From Eledone cirrhosa (taxonomy: Eukaryota), in NCBI GenBank assembly GCA_964016885.1, contig OZ024744.1, positions 35,836,001-35,900,000 of the forward strand: 64,000 nucleotides of DNA, given 5' to 3'. Within the stretch, counting starts at the first letter, position 1. Every line of letters starts with the position of its first letter. The translations under genes were made by a program, and so were the position numbers. Under the pieces are notes generated by a model. The model did not search any database. It saw only the letters and a program-made list of their open reading frames with translations, and was not told the origin of the DNA. This document shows positions 1-61,525 of the stretch, piece after piece.

Positions 1-1654
1 AGTGAATGGTCACCTTTCGGAACCGCTCAACATCATGCGCTCAGTCCGCCAAGGATGTCCCCTCTCGTCCCTATTGTACGTATTGACTCTCGAGCCATTA
101 CTGCACAAACTGGAGACATTGAGGGGGTCCCGCGCGAACTAGGATGCGGAAGATCCGTGTCAGCATATGCGGACGATGTCACCCTAGTGGTGTCGAACGC
201 CAAACACATCGAGGCGATCGGCACTACACCAAGAGAATACGAAGCGGTGACAGGAGCAATGATAAACCAGGAAAAGTCAGTGGGCCTGCAGCTCGGCACC
301 TGGAGAGGCAGGTCCATGCGGTCCAGACCTCCAGACGGACAAAAACTGGGACGAGGTGACGAGCAGAGTGGCTTCTCTCACCCAGAAATGGGCCTAGAGG
401 AAGCTATCCCTGAAAGGTCGAGCGGAGGTGGCTAACGCGTATATCGCGTCCGTCTTCTACTACCGCCTGACCGTCGTACCTTGTCATAAGCCCCGCCTGA
501 CTGCGCTGGAGCGTTTGCTCTTTCGCTTTTTGTGGAAGGGACGCGCTCCGATGGTCAGGCGGTCTATCTGCTGTCAACACCCGCTACTTGGAGGGCTGGG
601 CATGCCGTGGCTGATGATGCGCAGACACGCGCTCAGGCTACGGCATCTCCACGTCTTCCTCGACGGTGATCAGGTGTGGTCGCCGTTTGCTAGACACTTC
701 TTTCCCCAGCTCGTCTCCTTGACGGAGCTGCAGTCCTGGGTCAAGCGAAGACCGAGAGGGAGCGCTTGGAGACTGGAATGTCTTCAGGCGCTCACAGCCC
801 TCGACCAATCGGGCAATGTGATCGGTGGAAACTCCACCTTGGCGTTCTATAGGGGATTAGTGGAGGGGAAGAGCGACGACGTACTTGGAGAAACTCTAGG
901 CGTCGACGAAAATCAACTAGCCAATCTCTTCGGAAGGACTTTCGGGCCGGGGCCTATGGACAACTTCCAGAAATCCCTGGCCTGGCAGTGCTACCGGGGA
1001 GCTTTGCCAGTTCGGGATAAACTTTACAGGCATGGAGGTGCCGTCAGCCGGGCATGTCCGAGATGCGCACAGGGCGACGAAACCGTCCTGCACGCACTCG
1101 TCCAATGTCCGAGTATTGCTGACTTGTGGGTTTATGTCGAACACCTGCTGTCACGTGTAGGACGGATCCAGCTATCAGCTGAGTCCATCGTGAGGATTGC
1201 CCCGCCCTCTTCCTTTAGCCGGGAAGGGCAGGCAGTTTTTATCTGTCTGGTGGCCATGGCGAAAGAGATAGTATGGTGGACACGTTTGAAAGGGCTGAAG
1301 ACGAGCACTTACCTCTTCGGTGATGCCCTGATTAACCTTTTCAAATTTCATTTGAAAAGGAAAATCAGTATGGCCCGAATGAATGGGCCTTCTCTAAGTA
1401 TGAGTCTGTAAATTAAAGGTGGAAAACTGGGAGAGGGCACTTGCCCTGGTGGTCAGGGCCACTGTGGTCTTTTAATGGGCTTTCTCCACAAATGTCCCTC
1501 GGAAGTCTCCCCCCTATTGGGTAATTTTTCTTTGTTATTTTATTTCATCCTCTGTTTTTTTTACACGCAGAAATGCCCATTTGTACCGTCCTGTATTGTC
1601 CTGTACTGTCCTTAATGTCTACTTTATGTAAACCCTTGTGGTTAATAAAGAAAA

Positions 1655-1700
<46 letters not shown>
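1..1700 (+). mobile_element. Tx1/L1-type non-LTR retrotransposon, family 1, 3' part (copy A; begins before the window)
   Basis: Near-identical to 5948-7750. RT motif SAYADD, C-terminal CPRC...H..C zinc-finger region (ORF 428-1411), 3' UTR with AATAAA and a (TTA)n tail at about 1657-1700. Confidence 0.93.
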
Positions 1701-1918
1701 GAATGCTATGGTTGACGGAGGCTCGGCTCTGTAAGGTACTGTAAATTTTGAACGCTATAACAATTGTAAATTGTTTAAAACTTAGACCAACTTGTAGACA
1801 AAAACACCCTCCTCCTCGTGAGAGGGGTCTTTCTGCCCGTTATTTGGCCCTTCGGGGTTAAATAACTGCTTATTGGGGTTTTGTACCCAATATTTATTTT
1901 TAACAAAAAAACAACAAC

Positions 1919-4026
1919 ATGGCTACGAAAAAGAATTTGCATAGGTCACGCCCACTCATTCCGTCTTCTTTTTCCTCAATCGTCACTACAGCAGAGAGAA
2001 GATTGTCTCTCTCCCTCCCTTCTTTAAATCTGTCTCTCTCCCTCCCTTCTCTTTCGCAAGCGACGAAAGAAAAGAAAAGTCTCGTGCAAAGCGTGCAAGG
2101 TTTCTCCACGACGACGACGACAGCGACGAAACAGGTGTGCGGGAAATACGAAAACCCAGTTCATTCGTCTGACGTCAGGAATAATAGCAGTAGCAGCCGT
2201 AATAACAACAGCAACAGTGACAATGAAAACAACAGTAGCAGCCGCAACAGCATCACCAGCAGCATAAACAACAACAGCATTAGCAGCAGCAACACCAACA
2301 ACAACCACAGCAACAGCGGCGGAGGCAGTAGTCGTAGTACCTGCAGCAACAACAAAAGTAACAGCAGCTCTGACGACAACAACAACAACAGCAGCAAAGA
2401 AAAACCAATCTCATTTGCAGGTATTGCGAAAAACCTGGAAACAATCCTCATAACAAATGAGGAATTAGAGGAAGCGAAGAAGATGGTGACAAAGAATAAA
2501 CACCGAGCAATCTGCAAGGCAGCGGAAAAATTTTTCGGAACCCAACAGCACTGTACGGTCACGTACCGTACAGTAAGTACAAAATCCCGTAGGGTGGAAA
2601 GAGCCACAGAGGCTCAAATACAAAAATCCTTGGGGGTCTGTGTGGCAGCGGAAAACGCACATCACCCGAGGAAAAAAATATGCCACCGTAGACGTACTTT
2701 TTGCCACACCCCAGGAGGCAAAGGCTCAATCCGTAGTGACCCTAAGGGGCGAGGAAATGGTGTTGGTGCCCTCCTACTGCGGGCAAAAAAATGTGAGGGT
2801 CAAACTGACCCACGTCCCCCCCCCCCCGGGATGGCCCCTTATTGGCTGGCCGCGTCTGTCCTCGTCGGAATCGAGGACAAAACAACTGTACTGCAAGTAC
2901 AGAAAAAAGTAAGAGAAGATTGGGTCGGCACCTCCATTGAGATGCTAATCCAAACCAACCAGGAGTGCATCGAAGCTATCCCGGATGTGATAGACTTCGA
3001 TAACGGCACTCAACTGCCCATAAGTGTTGAGGGAAAACGCCCGAAATGCTTTCGCTGTGGATCGAAGACTCACCTCAGGTCCTTCTGCAACGAGAAGACC
3101 CTGAGAAAGGAGAAAACCCCCCTCCTTCCGAAACCGGCTCCACGGCTACCTGCAACAGGACAAGCGGCAATCAGGAACGATAGGTCCGTGGCACCCATAC
3201 CCACGCCACGGAAGTCAAAAACAGCAGCAGCAGTGGAAATATTAACAACAACAACAGCAATACCAAATGCAGCTGCAACAGAGACTCCAGTGCAAACATC
3301 ACCAACAACAACAAGTGAAAGAGTGGCGCTGGTACCCCTCACCGACCTCACAGAATCAGACATGAAGTGTGAGGTGGGAGAGGGATGGCAAAGGTCGTAA
3401 GAAGGCACAAACGCAGAAGCAGCGCATCGTCACCTTTGAAAAGGGAGGATAGAAATGAGAAAAGGGTAAAGTCTACTGCAAAGAGACCCACAGCAGCATC
3501 GCCACCAACACAATCACCACCCACACTAGCACCACCATCACCACCGGCGACAAACCCACCGCCAACAACACCTTCAACACCACCACCACAAGCACCAACA
3601 TCGCAAACACAACAACAAAACACACACACCCTGCAACAACGACAAGAAAATAGCAGAACCACACCCCACCCCAAGAAAAACAAATGCACGGCAATAAATA
3701 CACGCAACAAGAAACTAATGACTTACATAATTGAACACACAGACATTTCACAACACGACTACATAATACCAGCACCAATCAAAACGCCAACTAACATAAG
3801 ACTGCTAAAAATAGCACAGAAACAATACACAAACATTAAAACGAAATTCCCCAACGCAGTTGGTGATTTTAGGGACCTAGGAGGAACTATCAATCGAAGA
3901 GTATATTCAGACATTCTCTTAGAAGAGCCGACGACCAGCCGAAGGGACGATTCAACGGTCCCTTCACCAGACGATCAAGTGAAAAGGGATGTAAAAACCA
4001 TCCCTCCTCTACCAAAAGCACGGTAA
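1919..4026 (+). pseudogene. LINE ORF1 (gag-like nucleic-acid-binding protein), frameshifted
   Basis: ORFs 1919-3400, 2640-2912 and 3385-4026. CFRCGSKTHLRSFC is a CX2CX4HX4C knuckle. Low-complexity N/S and P/T tracts. Confidence 0.8.
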
Positions 4027-4061
4027 GTGGTCTTTCCCATCTTTTCCACTCTATTTTAAAC

Positions 4062-7000
4062 ATGACCTCACTCAGAATAGGCAGCATAAATGCGCGTGGC
4101 TTGGGGTCGTCATGGAAGCAGGGTCACCTGCTCAACGACCTCAGGTCACTAAACATAGATGTAGTGGCCATCAGCGAGACCAGAATCTCCGAAGCACTGG
4201 CCTTCGCACCGATCTTTGGCGACTACGATGTGTACGCATCTCCCAGCCGTCCTGGATCGGGGGAAGGAGTTGCTGTGCTTTTTCCGAGAGGTTTGGATCT
4301 CGCCATACGGGCCATCTTCCTGGACCCAGAGGGTAAGCTGGTGGTGCTGGACGTGACCAGCGGAGACGGGCAAGCTTTCAGGCTAGTGGCCGTCTATGCC
4401 CCGACAGGAGCAGGGCGGCCTGATTTCTTCCGGCGTCTGGAGACCTTTCTTGGAACGTCCCGCTCTTTAGTGTTAGTGGGCGACTGGAATGGCATCTTAG
4501 ATGCACGCTGGGACTGTGTGGGATTAGCAGATAGGGGTGGAGGGTGCAAGAGCCTCACCAACCTGCTCAGGCGTTTTGAACTGTCTGACAGGTACCGATT
4601 GGATTTCCCGAATGTGCCAATGTGGACTTGGACAAATAGCATAGGGTCATCCAGATAATATCTAGATAGAGTATTTTGTAGGGAAATAGATAGGTCTAGC
4701 ATAGGCTGTCCACAATTCAAGATAGTCAGCTACACGGACCACAAATTCGTGATCTGTGTGCTTGACTTAGATAGGCTTCATAGACGAGGACCCGGCTACT
4801 GGAAGCTAAACGCGTCGTTACCAGCGCGCAAGGCCTACAGAGACCGGATTAGCGAACTAGTTAAGCGGGCGTTGACGGGGGCCATCGTCAACAACAAGTG
4901 GTGGTTTGCTCTGAAAAGAGCGATTAGAATAGAATCCATTAGGTTTAGTAAGGCTTTAGCAATAGAGAAAAATAGAGCAGAGGGAGAACTAGTCAGAAAA
5001 TTAGACGAGGCGCTTAGCAACGGCATTGCGACCGACGTGCTTGCGGCGAAATTGGCCCTTGACCAATTCTTCAATGCAAAGCACGAAGGCTGCGTTGTCA
5101 GAGCTAGGGTGCGTGCTCTCAGACACGAGGGGACGAAAGCCGTTCAATGGGCCCGAGTGGCGGAGGCGCGTCGTGGCAACAAAGCCACGATCCGGTCTTT
5201 GGTGAACCACGACGGGCGCATGCTACTCGATCCCGGGCAAATGTGTGAAGCTTTTCAGCGACACTTCGCTCAGCTGTTCGGGGGCAGCGGTGGGCCGGGT
5301 CGAGTGATGGACTTTAGTGTCTACCTCGACGGACTGCCGCGGCTCTCGGCCACAGAGGCGAAGTGTTGCGAAAAGCCGATAACAGCCGCTGAAGTAAGGG
5401 AGGCAATGACTGGCTGCACAAGGGGTAAATCGCCTGGTTTGGATGGTCTGCCCTATGAACTTGACGTACAGATGCCAGACTTGTTCGGAGGCCTCTTGGC
5501 GGACGTCTACTGCAACTGGCAACAGAACGGGAGAATTCCCAGTTCTGTGAGCCAAGGAGCGGTGGCACTGCTGAGAAAGGATCCGAACAAGGGGGATAAC
5601 ATAGATAATTTCCGGCCCATAACTCTGCTAAACACAGAGTTCAAGATTTTGGCCAAGGTGCTAGCAAAGAGGTTGGCGCTTGTCGTTGGTGGTCTGATGG
5701 GAGAGGCGCAGACATGCGCCATTCCCGACAGATCCATCCACGACAACCTCCACCTCATGCGATACATCGTAGAGAGGGTAGCTAGGGAACCTGGCACGGG
5801 TGGGTCCTTGATCAATTTAGATCAGTCGAAAGCTTTCGATAGGGTCCACCATCGTTACCTAGCGGCAGTCCTGAGAGCGGCTGGCTTTGGGCCCGTCTTC
5901 AGAGGCTGGATATCTGCCATGCACAGCGACATCTGCTCTGTGGTGAGAGTGAACGGTCACCTTTCGGAACCGTTCAACATCATGCGCTCGGTCCGCCAAG
6001 GATGTCCCCTCTCGTCCCTCTTGTACGTATTGACTCTCAAGCCATTACTGCACAAACTGGAGACATTGAGGGGGGTCCCGCGCGAACTAGGATGCGGAAG
6101 ATCCGTGTCAGCATATGCGGACGATATCACCGTAGTGGTGTCGAACGCCAAACACATCGAGGCCACCGGCACTACACTAAGAGAATACGAAGCGGTGACA
6201 GGAGCAATGATCAACCAGGAAAAGTCAGTGGGCCTGCAGCTCGGCACCTGGAGAGGCAGGTCCATGCCGTCCAACAGCGTCCTCGGACGCTGGACGGACG
6301 GACCGGTTAAATTGCTAGGGGTCTGGTTCGGTCCGGACCTCCAGACGGACAAAAACTGGGACGATGTGACGAGCAGGGTGGCTTCTCTCACCCAGAAATG
6401 GGCGGAGAGGAAGCTATCCCCGAAAGGTCGAGCGGAGGTGGCTAACGCGTACATCGCGTCTGTCATCTGCTACCGCCCGACCGTCGTACCTTGTCCTAAG
6501 CCCCGCCTGACTGCACTGGAACGTTTGCTCTTTCGCTTTTTGTGAAAGGGACGCGCACCGATGGTCAGGAGGTCCATCTGCTGTCAACACCCGCTACGTG
6601 GAGGGCTGGGAATGCCGTGGCTGATGATGCGCAGACACGCGCTCAGGCTACGGCATCTCCACGTCTTCCTCGACGGTGATCAGGTGTGGTCGCCGTTTGC
6701 TAGACACTTCTTTCCCCAGCTCGTCTCCTTGACGGAGCTGCAGTCCTGGGTCAAGCGAAGACCGAGAGGGAGCGCTTGGAGACTGGAATGTCTTCAGGCG
6801 CTCACAGCCCTCGACCAATCGGGCAATGTGATCGGTGGAAACTCCACCTTGGCGTTCTATAGGGGATTAGTGGAGGGGAAGAGCGACGACGTACTTGGGG
6901 AAACTCTAGGCGTCGACGAAAATCAACTAGCCAATCTCTTCGGAAGAACTTTCGGGTCGGGACCTATGGGCAACTTCCAGAAATCTCTGGCCTGGCAGTG

Positions 7001-7481
7001 CTACCGAGGAGCCTTGCCAGTTCGGGATAAACTCTACAGGCATGGAGGTGTCGTCAGTCGGGCATTTCCGAGATGCGCGCAGGGCGACGAAACCGTCCTG
7101 AACGCACTCGTCCAGTGTCCGAAAATTGCTGACTTGTGGGTTTATGTCGAACACCTGCTGTCACGTGTAGGACAGATCCAGCTATCAGCTGAGTCCATCG
7201 TGAGGATTGCCCCGCCCTCCTCCTTTAGCCGGGAAGGGCAGGCAGTTTTTATCTGTCTGGTGGCCATGGCGAAAGAGATAGTATGGTGGACACGTTTGAA
7301 AGGGCTGAAGACGAGCACTTACCTCTTCGGTGATGCCCTGATTAACTTTTTCAAATTTCATTTGAAAAGGAAAATCAGGGTAGAGAGGGAAGTGCTCTCT
7401 TCCCAGCATTTTGTTGAAAGATGGGTGAGAGAAGCAAGTATGGCCCGAGTGAATGGGCCTTCTCTGAGTATGTGTCTGTAA
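4062..7481 (+). pseudogene. LINE ORF2 (AP endonuclease, reverse transcriptase, C-terminal zinc finger) with two in-frame stops
   Basis: Motifs SINARG, SET, VYAP, GDWN, YLDR, TDH, YWKLN, KSPGLDG, FRPITLLN, DQSKAFDRV, RQGCPLS, YADD. ORFs 4062, 4749 and 6561 share one frame, interrupted only by TAA at 4656-4658 and TGA at 6543-6545 (TGG in copy A). Confidence 0.93.
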
Positions 7482-7826
7482 ATTAAAGGTGGAAAACTGG
7501 GAGAGGGCACTTGCCCTGGTGGTCAGGGCCACTGTGGTCTTTTAATGGGCTTTCTCCACAAATGTCCCTCGGAAGTCTCCCCCCTATTGGGGAATTTTTC
7601 TTTGTTATTTTATTTCAACCTCCGTTTTTTTTACACGCAGAAATGCCCATTTGTACCGTCCTGTATTGTCCTGTACTGTCCTTAATGTCTACTTTATGTA
7701 AACCCTTGTGGTTAATAAAGAAAACATTATTATTATTATTATTATTATTATCGTTATCATCATCGTCATCATCGTTATCGTCGTCATTATCGTCATCATC
7801 ATCATCATCCCCATCATAATAACAAT

Positions 7827-19959: not shown

Positions 19960-22900
19960 TCACAGCAACCACCACAGTTATCACCGTCGTCATCCTCACC
20001 ACCGCTGCCACATCAACTGCTGGTAGTGGACCACTGCTTTCTCTCCGACCACTCTCACAGATATCACCACAGTTATCATCATGATCATCATCGTCGTCAG
20101 CACCGCTGCCGCTATCGTATTCTACCCTGTCAACTACTGCTAATAACAAACGACTGCTTTCTTCCCCCACATCGCCACCACAGTCATGCTTTAGTAAAAA
20201 GACCCTTAAAAAATCTATGAAGCTGTATGCACCCCCCATTACAGAAACAAGAAACCCCAAAATATGCCGCTACTCACTACGTCAGAGGCTCAGCACACGT
20301 AGCGACTGCATATTTACCCCTTTACTATGTATTAGACGTACATACACTTCCAGCCAACACCAAAGCACGCTTCCCACACGCATAAGTCGGAGTCCCAAAA
20401 TCTGCCGACATTCCCAACGCGAGAGACTATGTCTGCTGACTGACTGTCCCTTCACTCATCTTCCTGGGACACAACGCACGAACAGAGAAGGGGATCCATG
20501 CCAACACACAAACCACAATAAAGCCACCCCTTGCTGCAGTAATGCTGGTCGAGTCTTTTCACAAAGACAGAAATGCAACAACAACAACAAATACAACAAC
20601 AACAAAACAAAAACAACAAAAGAGGGAACTACAACCCTATTCCAACAGTGTAACCACAATTCCAGTCAAAAGCTGCTCCTTAAACAAAATTTTATTTCTT
20701 TTGTAGCCATGTTGAACCTGGCAAAAGAGATACAGAAAATCCTTTTAGCCATCACTCAACACCATGCTATGATATTACTCCAGTGCACCAAACCCCACAT
20801 AGCTGTCACTAACACACAATCTCAAAACAAGCCCTCTGCAACAGTCAGAACCAGCCACTACACTAGCTTCCACATTTCTACTCAATACACAAGGTATCAG
20901 CCCATCCACCAATGCACAGAAAATCCATTGACTCCACATCCCTTTCTTCCTTCTTACTGAGACCCACCTTGACAACTCCCACTTGGAGGCCGAAGTAAGA
21001 GTGACGAATTTCACAACCATCCACGCGGATCGTGTTGACAGAAGGAAGGGTGGAACTGCCATTTGTTTGCATGATTCCTTTACAGCAGATGGTAACGCAA
21101 CTTTCTCCAATGGCTACTGTGAATCAGTCACTGCACTGTGCACAACAAAGCCAATATCCTGATATTAGTTGGGCTCTATAGGCCACTCCAAATACCCATA
21201 ATGCGCTTCAAAGAATGCCTCAACTGCATTAAGTGCTTTATTCAACAGTGCCATTCTAGTAATATACTTTTGATGGGAGACTTTAATCTACCCTGTGTCG
21301 ATTGGTCTACAAGCAGTTTGAAACCAGGCACTCCCATCTCAACCACTGACAAGGAAGCAGTCGAGTCACTTCTCGACTTTATGAATGAGTTTTTCTTGTC
21401 CCAACTTGTCCTTGCACAAACAAGGCATCAGAAGAACATTTTGGACCTAGTGTTACTAGACACTAACACTATACATAATATTACAGTGAAAAACCCTTCT
21501 CTCAGACTATGACATGGTTCTTTGTAACCTGAGATTCCACCAGCCGAAAGCTAATTCCAGGGACCTCTTTCCAGCCCACCCATTTGATAACATGGATCTC
21601 TACAATGCCAACTGGGATGCAATCATGAACGAACTATCACATGTTGAATGGTCTTTTACACACGCACTCATTTGCACGAACATCAAAACATCTTGGCAGA
21701 TCTTTGTAGACACTGTCACAAATATATGTGCAAAACACACCCCACCAAAACATGTGAACAAAACTAAGTGCAGTATCCCCCAAAACAGAAAAACTATTAT
21801 CAGATAAATAAAAAGAACAAACAAAAATTAACACACTAAAATACTGCCAACAGCAACAGACACATTCGACGGCTATCACCCTGCTTGAATCAAAATAATA
21901 AAACTTCCAACAATGCACGAAGACCATCATCAATAACCAGAGAACCGCTGAAGGGAGGTGGGCCATTGAGAAATCAAACTCAACCCCAAAGTGTTCCTTT
22001 CTTTTGCTAAAAAATACAAGGTCACCGTCTCCACTGTTGGACCCCTAGTTGATGAAAATGGCACACTCCAGGATAATGCCAAAACCATGGGCGAGATACT
22101 GCAGAAACACTACTGCTCTGTTTTCAGCAATCCTGATATGACTGATCTGGGCCGTATCAGTGATGTTAATCCCCAACACACTATATCGGACATAACGTTT
22201 GGCGCCCCTGATGTCTTAGCGGCAATCAACGAAATTAAACACAATTCAGCAGTAGGCCCCGATAGGTTACCTGCTTGTGTCCTGAAGGTGTGTCGACACC
22301 AGCTTGCATCTCCTCTTGCTAATCTGTGGAGGAACTCACTGGACACTGGCTATATTCCTGAAAACTTTCTGTCTCAGTCCGTTGTCCCAGTTTTCAAAAA
22401 TGGAAACAAGTCCCTTGCAGTGAACTACCATCCGATCTCACTCACCTCTCATATTATCAAGGTATTTGAGAGGGTGGTGAGATCACGAATAACCCACTTT
22501 CTCGAAAGCAACGGACTGCTGAACTCTTACCAACATGGGTTCCATGTTGGAAGGGACTGCCGAACGCAGTTCCTGCATCACTTTGATGATGTTTTGAGAG
22601 CCTTGGGAGAGGGCTCCAACACTGATGTCATCTACCTTGATTTCAGCAAGGCCTTTGACAGGGTTGATCATAAGATTCTACTGAAAAAACTATCCAATGT
22701 TGGTGTCTCTGGAAGGTTACTACAGTGGATCAAATGTTTCCTGACAGGCAGAACCCAGCATGTTGTAGTCGAAGGATTAAATCAAGCACTGCCAAAGTCA
22801 GCAGTGACGTCCCACAAGGCACTGTGTTGGGCCCACTTCTTTTCATCATCTACATTAATGACATTACTGACATCATCAAGCGCAGCAACATCAGAATCTT

Positions 22901-55767: not shown

Positions 55768-55975
55768 CGGATAGTGTTGACGTGTGCCACTTCGCTGGTA
55801 AGTTTTTTGTTAATTTTGTATGCAAAAAACAGGAACCTTCTGTTAAAAAATATATTGTTTCGTAGATTAACCCCCAAGCTGAATTGTCAGCTGGGCGGTA
55901 ATCTCATTTTTCGCCCACCGGGCGGAAATTTTATTTGAAATATTTTCAAACAGTTTAATATTTTTGATATCGATA

Positions 55976-57847
55976 ATGGCTAGCTTAGTAGAAACAACGC
56001 TACCGAACGCTGACGAAGAAAGTAGAGAGATAAATGCAGAGAGTAACGTTACAGCAACTCTGACTACATCGGCGTCACTATGGAGACAAATAGTGACAAC
56101 AAAGTTTTGTTTTACCAAGAAGCCGAAACATGCAACTTACAAGATGGACCACACAGCTTACAACAGACATAAAAAACCACAAAAAATGAAACAATTGTCA
56201 CAACTACAAGTGGAAAAACCGACAACAACAACAACAACACAAAAAATAAAACTTTTACAGAAACAGTCACAAATAATAATAACGTTACTTCAAACTCCGC
56301 ATGTATTGGCGTCACCATGGAAGCCAATATGGACAAAAAAAATAAAAATAAAAATAAAAACAAGATTGAACAACAGTGTACAACAGACACCATAAACACC
56401 AGAAAAAATAACAGAAAATAAAACCATTGACAAACGGAAAAACCGACAACCACAACAACTACAATAACAACAACACCAAAAAAACTTTTGCGCAAACAGT
56501 CATCAAGAAACAAGAATTCAAAGATCTCGATATCTCCAATGCGAAACAGATGCTCTCTGAAGCAAAGGAGTTTATCACTTTCGGTGAAAACGGTGGATTG
56601 CGGATAAACTCACCCCCAGAAATTCGTCTGGAAACATTTCGAAGGACAATTACCTTCAGAACTGTTTCAAATGAAACAAAACGATCAGCATTCCTCAGTC
56701 AAGGGGAAATTGAGGCAACCTTGAAGGAGATATTGCCAAACATTGACTTTATGCAGAGGTCAAACAGTACGAGAGTATTTCGTTACTCCTCAAAAGCGAG
56801 GCCCTATACTGTCACAAAAATACACATTTTTCCCTACATACCTGGGAAAAAGGACACAAAAAATCAGAATTACAAACATACCACCAAATATTAATATTTG
56901 GTGGATATTGGCAGGATTTTTAGAGGAGAGAAAAGACACCATTCTCTCCATCAAAACGTCAACCAGACATATGTGGTCTGATACAAATTTGGAGATTCTG
57001 GTGCAAATGAGCCCGGAAAGAATCTCCAAAATACCAGAAAAAGTGCTGGTGGAGAACAACAGCCACATAAGCATTTCGGTTGAGGGACGAAAATGTACAT
57101 TGCTTTCGTTGCAATAGCGCCACACACCTAAAGGCCACCTGCCCTTTATAAACGCGCTCAACCAAAACAATACAAAAGAAAACACTGTTACCAACACCAA
57201 CACCAAAACAACCACCACCACCACAACAACAACAACACACGAACACACGAAACAAGCAAACACACCAAAACAAACAGCCACTCAACCAACAACAACAGAA
57301 AAAAACACAGACAACACCCCTAAAGAACACAGCCCCACACCATCCCGCTCCATCAAACACTACCATAAGCACACACACCGAAACACCACCACCACACAAC
57401 ATACCACTACCCCACACCCCTGACGATGATTATTCATTAACAGATCAGGCCACTTCTCCTTCTTTAAGTGAAGAAGAAGGAGAGCCTCGGAAATCCAAAA
57501 AAACAAAAAAAGAGACACCACAAAATCCCCAAACCTCCAATCACCAACACCAGCACATAGCCACAGACACAAACAAGAGTTTGATGGAAGTCATCTCCCA
57601 AAACCCCAAGGTGGAGACGGTGGGCAAAAGTTTCGTTAAAGCAGAATCGTCTCCACACCTTACACTTATAAGGGTTTCTATGGAGACCTATAGTGACCTG
57701 AACAACAATTTTTCGCAGGACGTGGGCAACCCCTGCCAGAAACCCATCAACCGCGTCCTGTTAAAATGTTTCCCCACCCCAGCCAACACCCCCTCCAGCA
57801 CCCAAATGGAGATTGAAGAACCCGATCTCCAGGAAACGAAAAGGTAA
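55976..57847 (+). pseudogene. Family 2 ORF1, frameshifted
   Basis: ORFs 55964, 56427, 56743 and 57581 are collinear with family 1 ORF1. Confidence 0.72.
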
Positions 57848-57889
57848 GTGCACCTTTTCGTCCTTTTTCGCCAACTCTTCTCCACCAAC

Positions 57890-60800
57890 ATGACTAGTTT
57901 ACGAGTTGGAAACAGGGCAAACTCTTAAACGACCTTAGGTCACACGATATATATGTGAAAGCCATCACCGAAGTCCAGGATCCACAACAGGCAGCAACTA
58001 ACGCCCATCTTCGACGACTTTGAGGTCTAGGCATCTCTCTTTCAGCCAGGAGGTGGAGGGGGAGTAGCTGTCATGTTTCGGATAAACCTGAACATCGAAG
58101 TACAGCAAGTACACTTGGACCAGGAGGGTAGATTGGTAGTCCTAGACGTGAACAGTGTAGGAGGTGGAGCCTTCAGACTGGTAGCCGTTTATGCCCCGAC
58201 AGGGCAATCGCGGCCATACTTCTTCAAGCATCTATATTCTTTTCTGGGAACGTCTCGCTCCTTGCTTTTAGTGGGGGACTCGAATGGTATCCTAGATGCA
58301 CGATGGGACTATGTGGGAACATGTCCCAGTAGAGGGGGGTGCAACAGCCTCAAAACTTTAATCGGCCAATTCCAACTGACCGATAGGTATCGACTAGATT
58401 TCCCGACAGAACCACAGTGGACGTGGGCAAACCGCAGCGGGACATCTAGATCGTATTTAGATAGGTTCTTCATTAGAGAAAGGGACAAGGAGATGTTAAG
58501 CTGTCCAGGAATGCACATGGTTAGCTATTCAGACCACAAACTAGTCGTCTGCATAGTCAACTGTGATAGAACACAAAGCCAGGGACCCGGATACTGGAAG
58601 CTGAACCTCTCGTTGCCGGCACGTAAAGCTTACAGTGAACGGATAAGTAGACTAGTCTAGCAACAGTTAACGGGAGCCATCGTCAACAATAGATGGTGGT
58701 ACTCTCTCAAGAAAGCAATTAGAATAGAATCGATAGACTTTAGCAGAGAGTTAGCCTTAGATAGAAACAAAATAGAAAGAGAACTAGTAGCCAAGGTAGA
58801 GGAGGCACTTAGAAGTGGCAATGCGGCTAGAGTGTTATCGTCGAGAACGGCACTGGACCAGTTCTTAGACGCGAAACACGAAAGCTACGTGGCCAGAAGC
58901 AAAACACATGCTCTAGGAAACGAAGGAGCGAAAGCTGTCAGCTGGGCCCGAGTGGCGGAGGCAAAAAGTGGCAACAAGTTCACGGTTGGGTCTTTGAAAG
59001 ACCAAAACGGACGCGTGCTACTTGACCCCAAGCGGTCTTTCAGCAGCACTTTGCGTGACTGTTTGAGCAGAACGACAGTGAGCCGAGCGGGGCAATGGAC
59101 TTTAGTTCATACCTCGACGGCCTGTCGCGTCTCTCGAACACGGACGCCGAGTTCTGCGAAAGACCGATCACGGACACTGAGATACGGGACGCTCTGGGCC
59201 GCTGCGGGAAACGCAAGTCACCCCGTCTAGATGGTCTACACTATGAGCTTTACATAGGCATGCCAGACTTGTTCTCTGGCGTCCTCGAAGCCGTCTACTG
59301 CAATTGGCAGCAGAACGGGATAATTCCCAGTTCTGCAGGCAAGGGCATAGAGACGCTGATCAGGAAAGACGAGAACAAGGGGGACGAAATTAACAACTTC
59401 AGGCCCACAACTCTGCTCTACACAGAGTTAAAGATTTTGGCCAAGGTGCTATCGACCAGGCAGGTGCTTGTCGTCGAGAACCTGGTAGGGAAAGCGCAAA
59501 CGAGTACAATCCCGACCAGGTCCATACACCACAACCTCCACCTCATGCGATACATCATAGAGAAGGTGGGTATTAAACCCGTCTTCGGTGGGGCTCTGAT
59601 CAATTTGGATCAGTCTAAGGCATTCGATATGGTCGACCATCGATACTTCGAAGCGGTTCTCAAGGCGCCCGGTTTCGGTCTCGTTTTCAGAGGCTGGATC
59701 AAGGCGTTGCACACCAGTATCTACTCGAGGTTCAAGGTGAACGGCTACCTATCGGAGCCGTTCACAATCACGCGTTCCATTCAACAGGGATGCCTTCTCT
59801 CCTCCATTCTGTACGTATTGACTCTAGAGCCACTACTGCGGGAAATGGAGCTGTTGCAGGGCATCCCTCTAGAACCGGGACTGAGCAAAGAGGCGTCGGC
59901 TTATACCAACGACGTGACGGTACTGGTGGCGAGCACCTCGGAAATCGGGGTGATCGGCAACTTACTGAAAGAATACGAAACGCTGAAGGGAACAAAACTA
60001 AACCCGAACAATTCTGTTGGTTTGCAACTCGCTACGTGGAGAGGCAATCTAATGACGTCCGACAGCTTTGTTGGACGCTGGACGGACGGACCGGTGAAAT
60101 TTCTCGGGGTCTGGTTCGGTCCAGACCTCCAGGTGGAGAAAAACTGGAACGAGGTCACGGCCAAGGTGTTTGCGCTCACCCAGAAGTGGGCAGAGTGCAA
60201 ACTGTCCTTGAAAGATCGAGCGGAGATGGCGAACACTTTCATAGCCTCCGCCATCTACAACCGCTTGACTGTAGTGCCTTGTCCCCGTGAACACTTCGCC
60301 AAGATGGAACGCATGCTCTCCAGTTTCTGTGGAAGAAGCAGGCTCCGCTGATGAGGAGATCCGTCTGCTGTCAGCACCCTTCCAATGGAGGCCTGGTAAT
60401 GCCGTGGTTGATGATGCGGCATCTCCAGGTATTCCTCACCGGCCCCAACTGGTGGGGGCACTCTTTGCGAGACAGGCTTTCCCGCAGCTCGTCTCGCTGA
60501 CGGAGCTGCAGTCCTGGGTCAAGAAAAGATCGAAAGCGGCCTGGCACATTTAATGTGCTCAGGCGCTCACAGTCCTCTGGCAAGCGGGCACAGCAATCAG
60601 TGGAGACTCCGGTTTGACATTCTATAGAGGGATTCTACGTTAGAAGGGCGGCGACGTGGTCGGAGAGACTCTGGGCGTCGAAGACGATGAGCTCACCAGT
60701 CTGTTTGGTAGGACTTTCCGCTCGGGATCTATGGACAATTTCCAGAGGTCTCTGGCTTGGCAGTGCTACCGAGGAGCTCTACAGTTCGTGACAAGATCTA

Positions 60801-61248
60801 CAGGCACGGACGCCCCGGCAGGGATCCTTCCAAGAGGACGTGTCCAAGATGTATTGAAACCGTCCTGCACGCAATTGTACACTGCCCAGGCGTAACCGAC
60901 CTGTGGAACTATGCAGAACAACTGCTCTCGCGCATGGGACAAATCCAGTTGACTGCCGAGTCCATAGTAAGGATCAAACCGCCAACTTCTTTCAAAAACG
61001 AAAGAGAGGCGGTTTTCCTCTGTACAGTGGCTATGGTGAAAGAGATTATATGGCGGACGAGATTGAAAGGACTGAGGACAGATGCCTTTCTCTCCGGACA
61101 ACAGCTCATTCCTTTCTTTAGATACCACTTTAAAAGGAGAATCAGAGTGGAGAGAAAGGCACTGCACCCCAGTAAATTTACTGAAAGTTGGGTGAATGAA
61201 GCAAAAATGGCCCGAGTGATTGGGCCTTCTCTGTTTATAAACCTGTAG
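57890..61248 (+). pseudogene. Family 2 ORF2 (endonuclease, RT, zinc finger) with multiple lesions
   Basis: Starts MTSLRVG (family 1 has MTSLRIG). ORFs 58073, 58832, 59095, 60656 and 60757. Confidence 0.88.
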
Positions 61249-61525
61249 GCTAAAGAAGAGAGCAAAAGGAAGAAGGGAACACTTGCACAACACGCTCCTG
61301 AAGTTGAGGGTTGTTCTATCGACGGGGTATTAAACAACCCATTTGTGGCGCCTCCCCCCTATTCGGGATTTTGATTGTTATAATCGTTTGTTTCAATACT
61401 TTTACACGACTGTATGCAAAATCCCCCGGCATGTCTTTGTATTGCCCCCATTTCTTGTACGCCATTGTGGCTAATAAAGAAATCTATCTATCTATCTATT
61501 TGTCTGCCGTTCCCCACTGTCTCTC

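Follow-up and report, generated by a model that had tools for sequence, protein, structure and literature searches.

A splice-donor word conserved at the ORF1-ORF2 boundary of four L1-type retrotransposon families in Eledone cirrhosa, with a spliced fusion protein unlikely

Long interspersed nuclear elements (LINEs) need an intact, intronless RNA of 6 kb and a little of the protein encoded by its second open reading frame (ORF2), and how this is controlled is known mostly from mammalian L1. In human L1, 116 spliced insertions (SpIREs) are recorded among 6,609 full-length copies, i.e., ~1.8% (PMC5860796). Splice donors can also act on polyadenylation, as in retroviruses, where the major donor of human immunodeficiency virus 1 (HIV-1) suppresses a poly(A) site 195 nt upstream, and that of foamy virus does so independently of splicing (PMC3694450). 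Octopus vulgaris has 13 recently active L1-Tx1 families, with splicing unmentioned in the text consulted (PMC13282606), and a median intron of 2,467 bp (PMC10700109); nothing concerning molluscs turned up in PMC13644364. This work concerns a donor-type word at the boundary of ORF1 and ORF2 in a LINE of Eledone cirrhosa, one copy of which, of the family that we call F1, lies in a window of 64,000 nt (i.e., the whole stretch analysed: assembly GCA_964016885.1, contig OZ024744.1, positions 35,836,001 to 35,900,000, forward strand). The element is a retrotransposon of the L1 superfamily without long terminal repeats (non-LTR), with an ORF2 combining APE endonuclease and reverse transcriptase and a separate ORF1 upstream. 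As judged from sequence comparison, the word is real and appears to be selected across four divergent families. A conserved inter-ORF donor word in a LINE is apparently undescribed, and our paper searches found no inter-ORF intron or donor in Tx1 or L1 elements, subscription papers and Repbase notes lying outside their scope.

In the window the word G/GTAAGT occupies 4022-4028 (GT at 4023-4024), and the ORF1 stop codon TAA, at 4024-4026, lies inside it. A sequence-only reading had seen here a donor, a pyrimidine-rich spacer without AG, and an acceptor at the first downstream AG, both sites being in phase 2, and the letters bear all of this out. The segment 4023-4075 measures 53 nt and is 73% pyrimidine, it is AG-free from the donor hexamer to 4074-4075, and its excision would join the two frames as ...PKAR-IGSINARG. 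GTAAGT and a CTCAG or CACAG acceptor are kept in 30 of the 30 closest copies, and among young copies the segment is 52 or 53 nt long, with the splice phase unaffected.

The wider comparison covers four lineages, namely F1 (with a young and an old type of ORF1), its sister F1b, F2 and F3, obtained from searches with ORF2 only and from the second element of the window; 60 loci were fetched by DNA similarity at the junction, and the ORF2-anchored sets are the unbiased part. Over the N-terminal 397 codons of ORF2 the families are 65-89% identical (~51% at neutral ORF2 sites), and in the tree F2 and F3 stand together (97/100), apart from F1 and F1b. Donor positions -1 to +6 are invariant in all four, against 34 of 104 fourfold ORF2 sites, and the chance of such invariance is 4e-4 with seven positions taken as free and 4e-3 with five. 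Of 145 junctions, 139 carry GTAAGT at a distance of 36-47 nt upstream of the ORF2 AUG, and the word is recovered also in searches anchored on ORF2 alone, minor lineages carrying the donor-type words GTAGGT or GTCAGT. It is absent from the 70 nt before the endonuclease in 22 of 22 distant LINE loci, several of them near-duplicates. Positions +10, +12 and +13 are likewise invariant, and the 40 nt of upstream flank hold only three invariant positions, two of which are donor positions -3 and -1.

The reading frame has moved around this word. In F1 and F2, ORF1 ends in R and a stop, and the donor is in phase 2; in F1b (...HDQGK-stop) and F3 (...TPEGK-stop) it ends one codon later, and the donor is in phase 1. 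The tree requires at least two changes of frame with the word kept, one in each arm (F1/F1b and F2/F3). Since the word is kept while the frame and stop of ORF1 shift, it is not a by-product of the stop codon. Of the conservation expected by the sequence-only reading, that of GTAAGT thus holds in four families and that of the phase does not, and the length from the word to the AUG varies as well (36-47 nt).

The proposal made from the sequence was that regulated removal of the 53-nt intron may give an ORF1-ORF2 fusion protein, with the intron-retained RNA as template for transposition. Every family does offer an in-frame YAG at a distance of 52-59 nt. In F1, and in the 20 of 32 F2 copies that have AGT as codon 3, this is the first YAG (52-54 nt), whilst an in-frame TAG occurs at 53 nt in young F3 and at 59 nt in F1b. 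An in-frame first YAG arises, however, in 37% of synonymous re-codings of the first F1 ORF2 codons; the in-frame acceptor of F1 is not beyond chance, whereas the donor is. The first AG falls at -1, +8, +14 or +16 from the AUG, depending on the family. F1 and F1b share AGs at +14, +19 and +23 but have opposite donor phases, so that any single acceptor leaves one of the two out of frame. For young F3, splicing to the first AG, at -1, would remove 36 nt and lose the frame, and the in-frame TAG is only the fourth AG; more generally, the in-frame TAGs of F1b and F3 come behind one to three earlier AGs. Use of these phase 1 acceptors would delete L-R-I/V of the endonuclease, in a region that aligns to L1 from residue 9, a segment that we take to be the first beta strand of this domain. 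Of 32 F2 copies, 10 lack the in-frame TAG at +8, whilst 28 have an intact donor; among the F2 rows listed in the ORF2-anchored set this TAG is missing in 15 of 33 (counted by eye), with GAC five times, a recurrence suggesting that acceptor-less lineages were amplified. Donor and first acceptor are therefore in phase in F1 and most of F2 and out of phase in F1b and F3, no 3' splice site is conserved, and this failure of phase conservation leaves the fusion unsupported. In addition, the supposed intron contains conserved features of the ORF2 start, namely the AUG, its A at -3 and Leu4 (which only young F3 lacks), and ORF2 relatives in databases (39-44% identical) begin at the same position.

Spliced RNA should also have left copies in the genome. 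L1-type proteins prefer their own mRNA (cis-preference), and hence a spliced RNA encoding the fusion should be copied. Among F1 copies we sought identical flanks separated by a gap of 0-20 nt, a test that constrains the germline only. This genome search for retrotransposed copies precisely lacking the 53 nt, which the fusion proposal had called for, gave 0 against 1,903 unspliced F1 copies (upper 95% bound about 0.16%), compared with the share of SpIREs in human L1; no intron-less copies were found in F3 or F1b. Copies with a base other than T in second position after the exon (41 in F1, 10 in F3 and 12 in F1b) are all point mutants or deletions, and none starts at an acceptor, this test being blind to exons whose second base is T. 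In 10 copies the acceptor exon is preceded by foreign sequence; none of them is a precise splice, and one is 1 nt off. Two candidates were rejected: L283, in which an ORF1 site meets the acceptor exon 1 nt away from a GT-AG splice and which has another deletion besides, and L284, which is explained by a microhomology deletion. Such elements often lose short internal stretches, and many F2 copies (L061-L090) carry differing deletions of 18-35 nt in the first ORF2 codons. On the intact F1 copy L094 (4700-8995), contigs were placed from four sequencing runs of unrecorded kind, and those in X2, X4 and X6 keep the segment unspliced (the X4 contig ending 13 nt past the acceptor). Of 300 contig joints, the 15 displayed do not include the splice joint; contigs of this sort drop rare forms. 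Readthrough of the ORF1 stop into ORF2 was rejected as well, the spacer offset being variable and not a multiple of 3.

Taken together, a fusion is possible in F1 but unsupported by comparison or by genomic copies, and the proposal of a regulated intron with a retained-intron template looks improbable. The lack of a strong masking stem in F1 speaks for it; against it stand the phase mismatch of F1b and F3, the AG set shared by F1 and F1b, the acceptor losses in F2, the empty search for spliced copies and the conserved AUG and Leu4. There is an equally small chance of a narrower version, in which somatic removal of the 53 nt in F1 and part of F2 would yield a fusion of ~1,830 aa, the corresponding splice in sister families would switch ORF2 off, and the switch would never reach the germline template. 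A fusion, if real, would add a new means of ORF2 expression to those known in LINEs, but both the comparison of families and the genomic copies argue against it.

The explanation that we tentatively favour, with a probability of roughly 0.45, is that the word is a U1-type site acting without productive splicing, and that unspliced bicistronic RNA serves, as in L1, for translation of ORF2 from an AUG of its own. The perfect donor word would bind the U1 small nuclear ribonucleoprotein, and such binding during transcription could protect or process a long, intronless, A-rich RNA, e.g., by suppressing premature polyadenylation, as the retroviral analogy suggests. ORF2 would be translated by reinitiation, as proposed for L1, and masking of the donor, or a poor acceptor, would keep splicing rare. 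The conserved letters are exactly those complementary to what we take to be the 5' end of U1. ORF1 is 41-45% A, and F1-young, F1-old and F3 have AATAAA or ATTAAA at 110-580 nt before the start of ORF2. As for masking, the spacer of F1b and F2 is predicted to fold back on the donor: the stem of F2 would be perfect over 10 bp, its loop containing AAGU, and that of F1b would span 9 bp and cover the whole donor, both exceeding spacer shuffles (p 0.008-0.018). The fold of F3 resembles that of F2, again with AAGU in the loop, whilst the pairing register differs between F1b and F2, and letters that stay constant while the register changes point to recognition of the sequence itself. The F1b spacer (L161 and L173) contains CACTTACC or CACTTGCC, complementary to the donor and presumably resembling the 5' end of U1 small nuclear RNA.

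Several observations weigh against this U1 reading. Masking sits awkwardly beside a need to bind U1, and in the spacer shuffles the 7-bp stem of F3 is not significant and F1 has no stem. A shared poly(A) hexamer is lacking from the 1.3 kb upstream in F1b and F2. All four families go back to one ancestor, which makes this a single origin of the word, and the donor of human L1 has been attributed to an overlapping RUNX3 site rather than to U1 (PMC5860796). A perfect donor word placed at the ORF boundary, kept through two frame shifts and predicted to be hairpin-masked in two families points to a selected cis-element in an active, very high-copy clade of invertebrate LINEs.

A doubtful but by no means negligible alternative is that the signal is not spliceosomal at all, i.e., that stop, short hairpin, pyrimidine spacer and AACAUG form a termination-reinitiation element, or that a factor site at the DNA level happens to resemble a donor. 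The word is always found at the ORF1 stop, at its short distance from the ORF2 AUG, and the invariance of +10, +12 and +13 and the common fold of F2 and F3 would suit such a signal; SART1 is known to couple its ORFs in a structure-dependent way and L1 to reinitiate (PMC5972666), and a RUNX3 site explains the human L1 donor (PMC5860796). Yet the position of the stop with respect to the word is not fixed, and the hairpin changes register (F1b) or is weak (F1) whilst the letters, with their presumed exact complementarity to U1, stay. Less likely again is that the word has no function, being an ancestral chance word in a short stretch that recombination has spread between families. The 6-kb element contains GTAAGT twice, with two more on its reverse strand, the origin of the conserved word is single, and ORF1 modules were swapped near the boundary, all of which would be compatible with chance; the nearly unconserved upstream flank, the variable spacer length and the divergence at neutral ORF2 sites speak against this reading.

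Least likely of all, in our estimate, is that the donor splices to a distant acceptor, in the 3' untranslated region (UTR), the next tandem copy or a host exon, to give an RNA for ORF1 only. The 3' UTR of F1 has a U-rich tract at about 7595-7642 of the window that closes in ACACGCAG, a strong acceptor-like site. The tract is common to other families, but its AG is not (it is absent in F1b, F2 and F3), and it was accordingly rejected as a conserved acceptor partner; moreover, none of the non-canonical junction copies described above begins at an acceptor, exons with T as second base being missed. At the other end of the element, donor-like words lie ~30 nt from the 5' end in 4 of 5 element types (F1-young, F1-old, F2 and F3), with none seen in F1b; that of the F2 copy in the window is at 55795-55803, and in F2 it is a perfect GTAAGT.

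Table 1. Positions in the window of the F1 and F2 copies and of the features discussed.
Feature	Position	Strand	Basis or remark
Decayed upstream F1 copy, 3' part, head-to-tail with next copy	1..1655	+	tblastn, ORF2 residues 630-1139; AATAAA then (ATT)n at end
(ATT)n microsatellite, likely target site or tail between tandem copies	1656..1700	.	sequence; spacer recurs between tandem copies elsewhere
F1 copy of L1/Tx1-type LINE, full-length but dead	about 1701..7725	+	sequence; intact natural sister copy L094
Donor-like TCT/GTAAGG, ~30 nt inside 5' UTR	1728..1736	+	sequence
ORF1, frameshifted in window copy	1919..4026	+	698 aa in intact copies; CX2CX4HX4C knuckle; predicted RNA-binding region
AATAAA within A-rich ORF1, 330 nt upstream of donor	3693..3698	+	AATAAA in 56/59 F1-young copies
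ATTAAA within ORF1	3835..3840	+	
U1-type donor word ACG/GTAAGT overlapping ORF1 stop, phase 2	4020..4028	+	sequence; conservation across families
Inter-ORF spacer, pyrimidine-rich, AG-free, AAC before ORF2 AUG	4029..4061	+	sequence
ORF2 with own AUG; APE endonuclease, reverse transcriptase, zf-RVT-like end	4062..7481	+	Pfam PF03372, PF00078; L1 ORF2p nearest solved relative
CTCAG, first downstream AG, phase 2	4071..4075	+	sequence
Second downstream AG, TAG, phase 1	4078..4080	+	sequence
Decayed full-length F2 copy between (ATCT)n repeats	55768..61484	+	
F2 donor AAG/GTAAGT (GT at 57844) within perfect 10-bp inverted repeat, predicted masking	57836..57861	+	spacer-shuffle p 0.01-0.02
F2 ORF2 AUG and first AG (codon 3, phase 2)	57890..57897	+	

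The F1 copy of the window (Table 1) has frameshifts in ORF1 near 2630, 2825 and 3390 and premature stops in ORF2 at 4656-4658 and 6543-6545. Its intact natural relative L094 encodes an ORF1 protein of 698 aa with a CCHC knuckle and an ORF2 protein of 1,139 aa, in which Pfam places PF03372 (APE endonuclease) N-terminally, followed by PF00078 (reverse transcriptase). The nearest solved relative of ORF2 is human L1 ORF2p (E 1e-52; R2 gives E 1e-21), and relatives from a metagenome scan are only 21-36% identical. ORF1 is less readily placed: its pieces in the window have no Pfam match, a search for homologues found none, fused or unfused (weak evidence), and its look-alikes in a protein atlas, at 0.90-0.93, are zf-CCHC and RRM families, which is a lead only. 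Rfam gave no match at E 0.1. F1 numbers about 1,900 copies or more and is young and abundant, with 150 of 150 scored endonuclease matches 97-100% identical, many with open frames and in tandem arrays. Among the copies fetched, (ATT)n lies on both sides of F1, F1b and F3, and (ATCT)n on both sides of F2. Such targeting of simple repeats is consistent with the Tx1 clade, to which the element may belong.

Other features of these elements deserve mention. Full-length copies form head-to-tail arrays separated by (ATT)n, often with families mixed and with a period of ~6.07 kb for F1 and 5.84 kb for F3 (C2:72806000-72835999; C1:423365287-423418069). F1-old (L194:1777-7195 and L195) and F1-young (L094) are 96-97% identical in ORF2 and only 43-57% in ORF1, and their 5' UTRs differ, which suggests swapping of ORF1; the ORF1 of F1-young closes in two tandem versions of a C-terminal module, which would put a crossover ~45-60 nt upstream of the donor. 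The tandem F3 copies L186 and L187 have in common a shortened ORF1 (485-496 aa, its stop ~450 nt early), with ORF2 intact, and a short-ORF1 subfamily therefore appears to have been amplified. A protein of Octopus sinensis named tectonic-3-like contains ~55 residues of the endonuclease of this clade (64% identical), as an exonized piece of a LINE or an error of the gene model. The window also holds, at 22006-22731, a distant reverse transcriptase fragment of another LINE clade (24% identical to ORF2).

Compared with described systems, the element resembles Kibi and Koshi of the Tx1 clade, which likewise have two ORFs, APE and reverse transcriptase, a CCHC ORF1, insertion into simple repeats and tandem arrays, but target repeats other than (ATT)n or (ATCT)n (PMC4494074). 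It is bicistronic like the termination-reinitiation systems of L1 and SART1, and has in common with them a short spacer and an ORF2 AUG that is separate and conserved, although the spacer is here about 31-43 nt long, strongly pyrimidine-rich and opened by a donor word, and there is no overlap of stop and start as in SART1 (PMC5972666). The retroviral major donors are the model for the function that we tentatively propose: those of HIV-1 and foamy virus are U1-type donors near AAUAAA, too, and act there without splicing, whilst that of Moloney murine leukaemia virus is attenuated by RNA structure (PMC3694450); the present element, however, is non-LTR, and its hexamers are cryptic, lie within ORF1 and are absent in two families. 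Finally, the 5' UTR donor of human L1 (G98U99), with its SpIREs, is similarly conserved across subfamilies and mostly unused by transcripts, but its place is the 5' UTR, where it coincides in part with a RUNX3 site, and it has left its spliced insertions in the genome (PMC5860796), whereas the word described here lies at the ORF1 stop, is a full match to U1, and has left none among the F1 copies searched.

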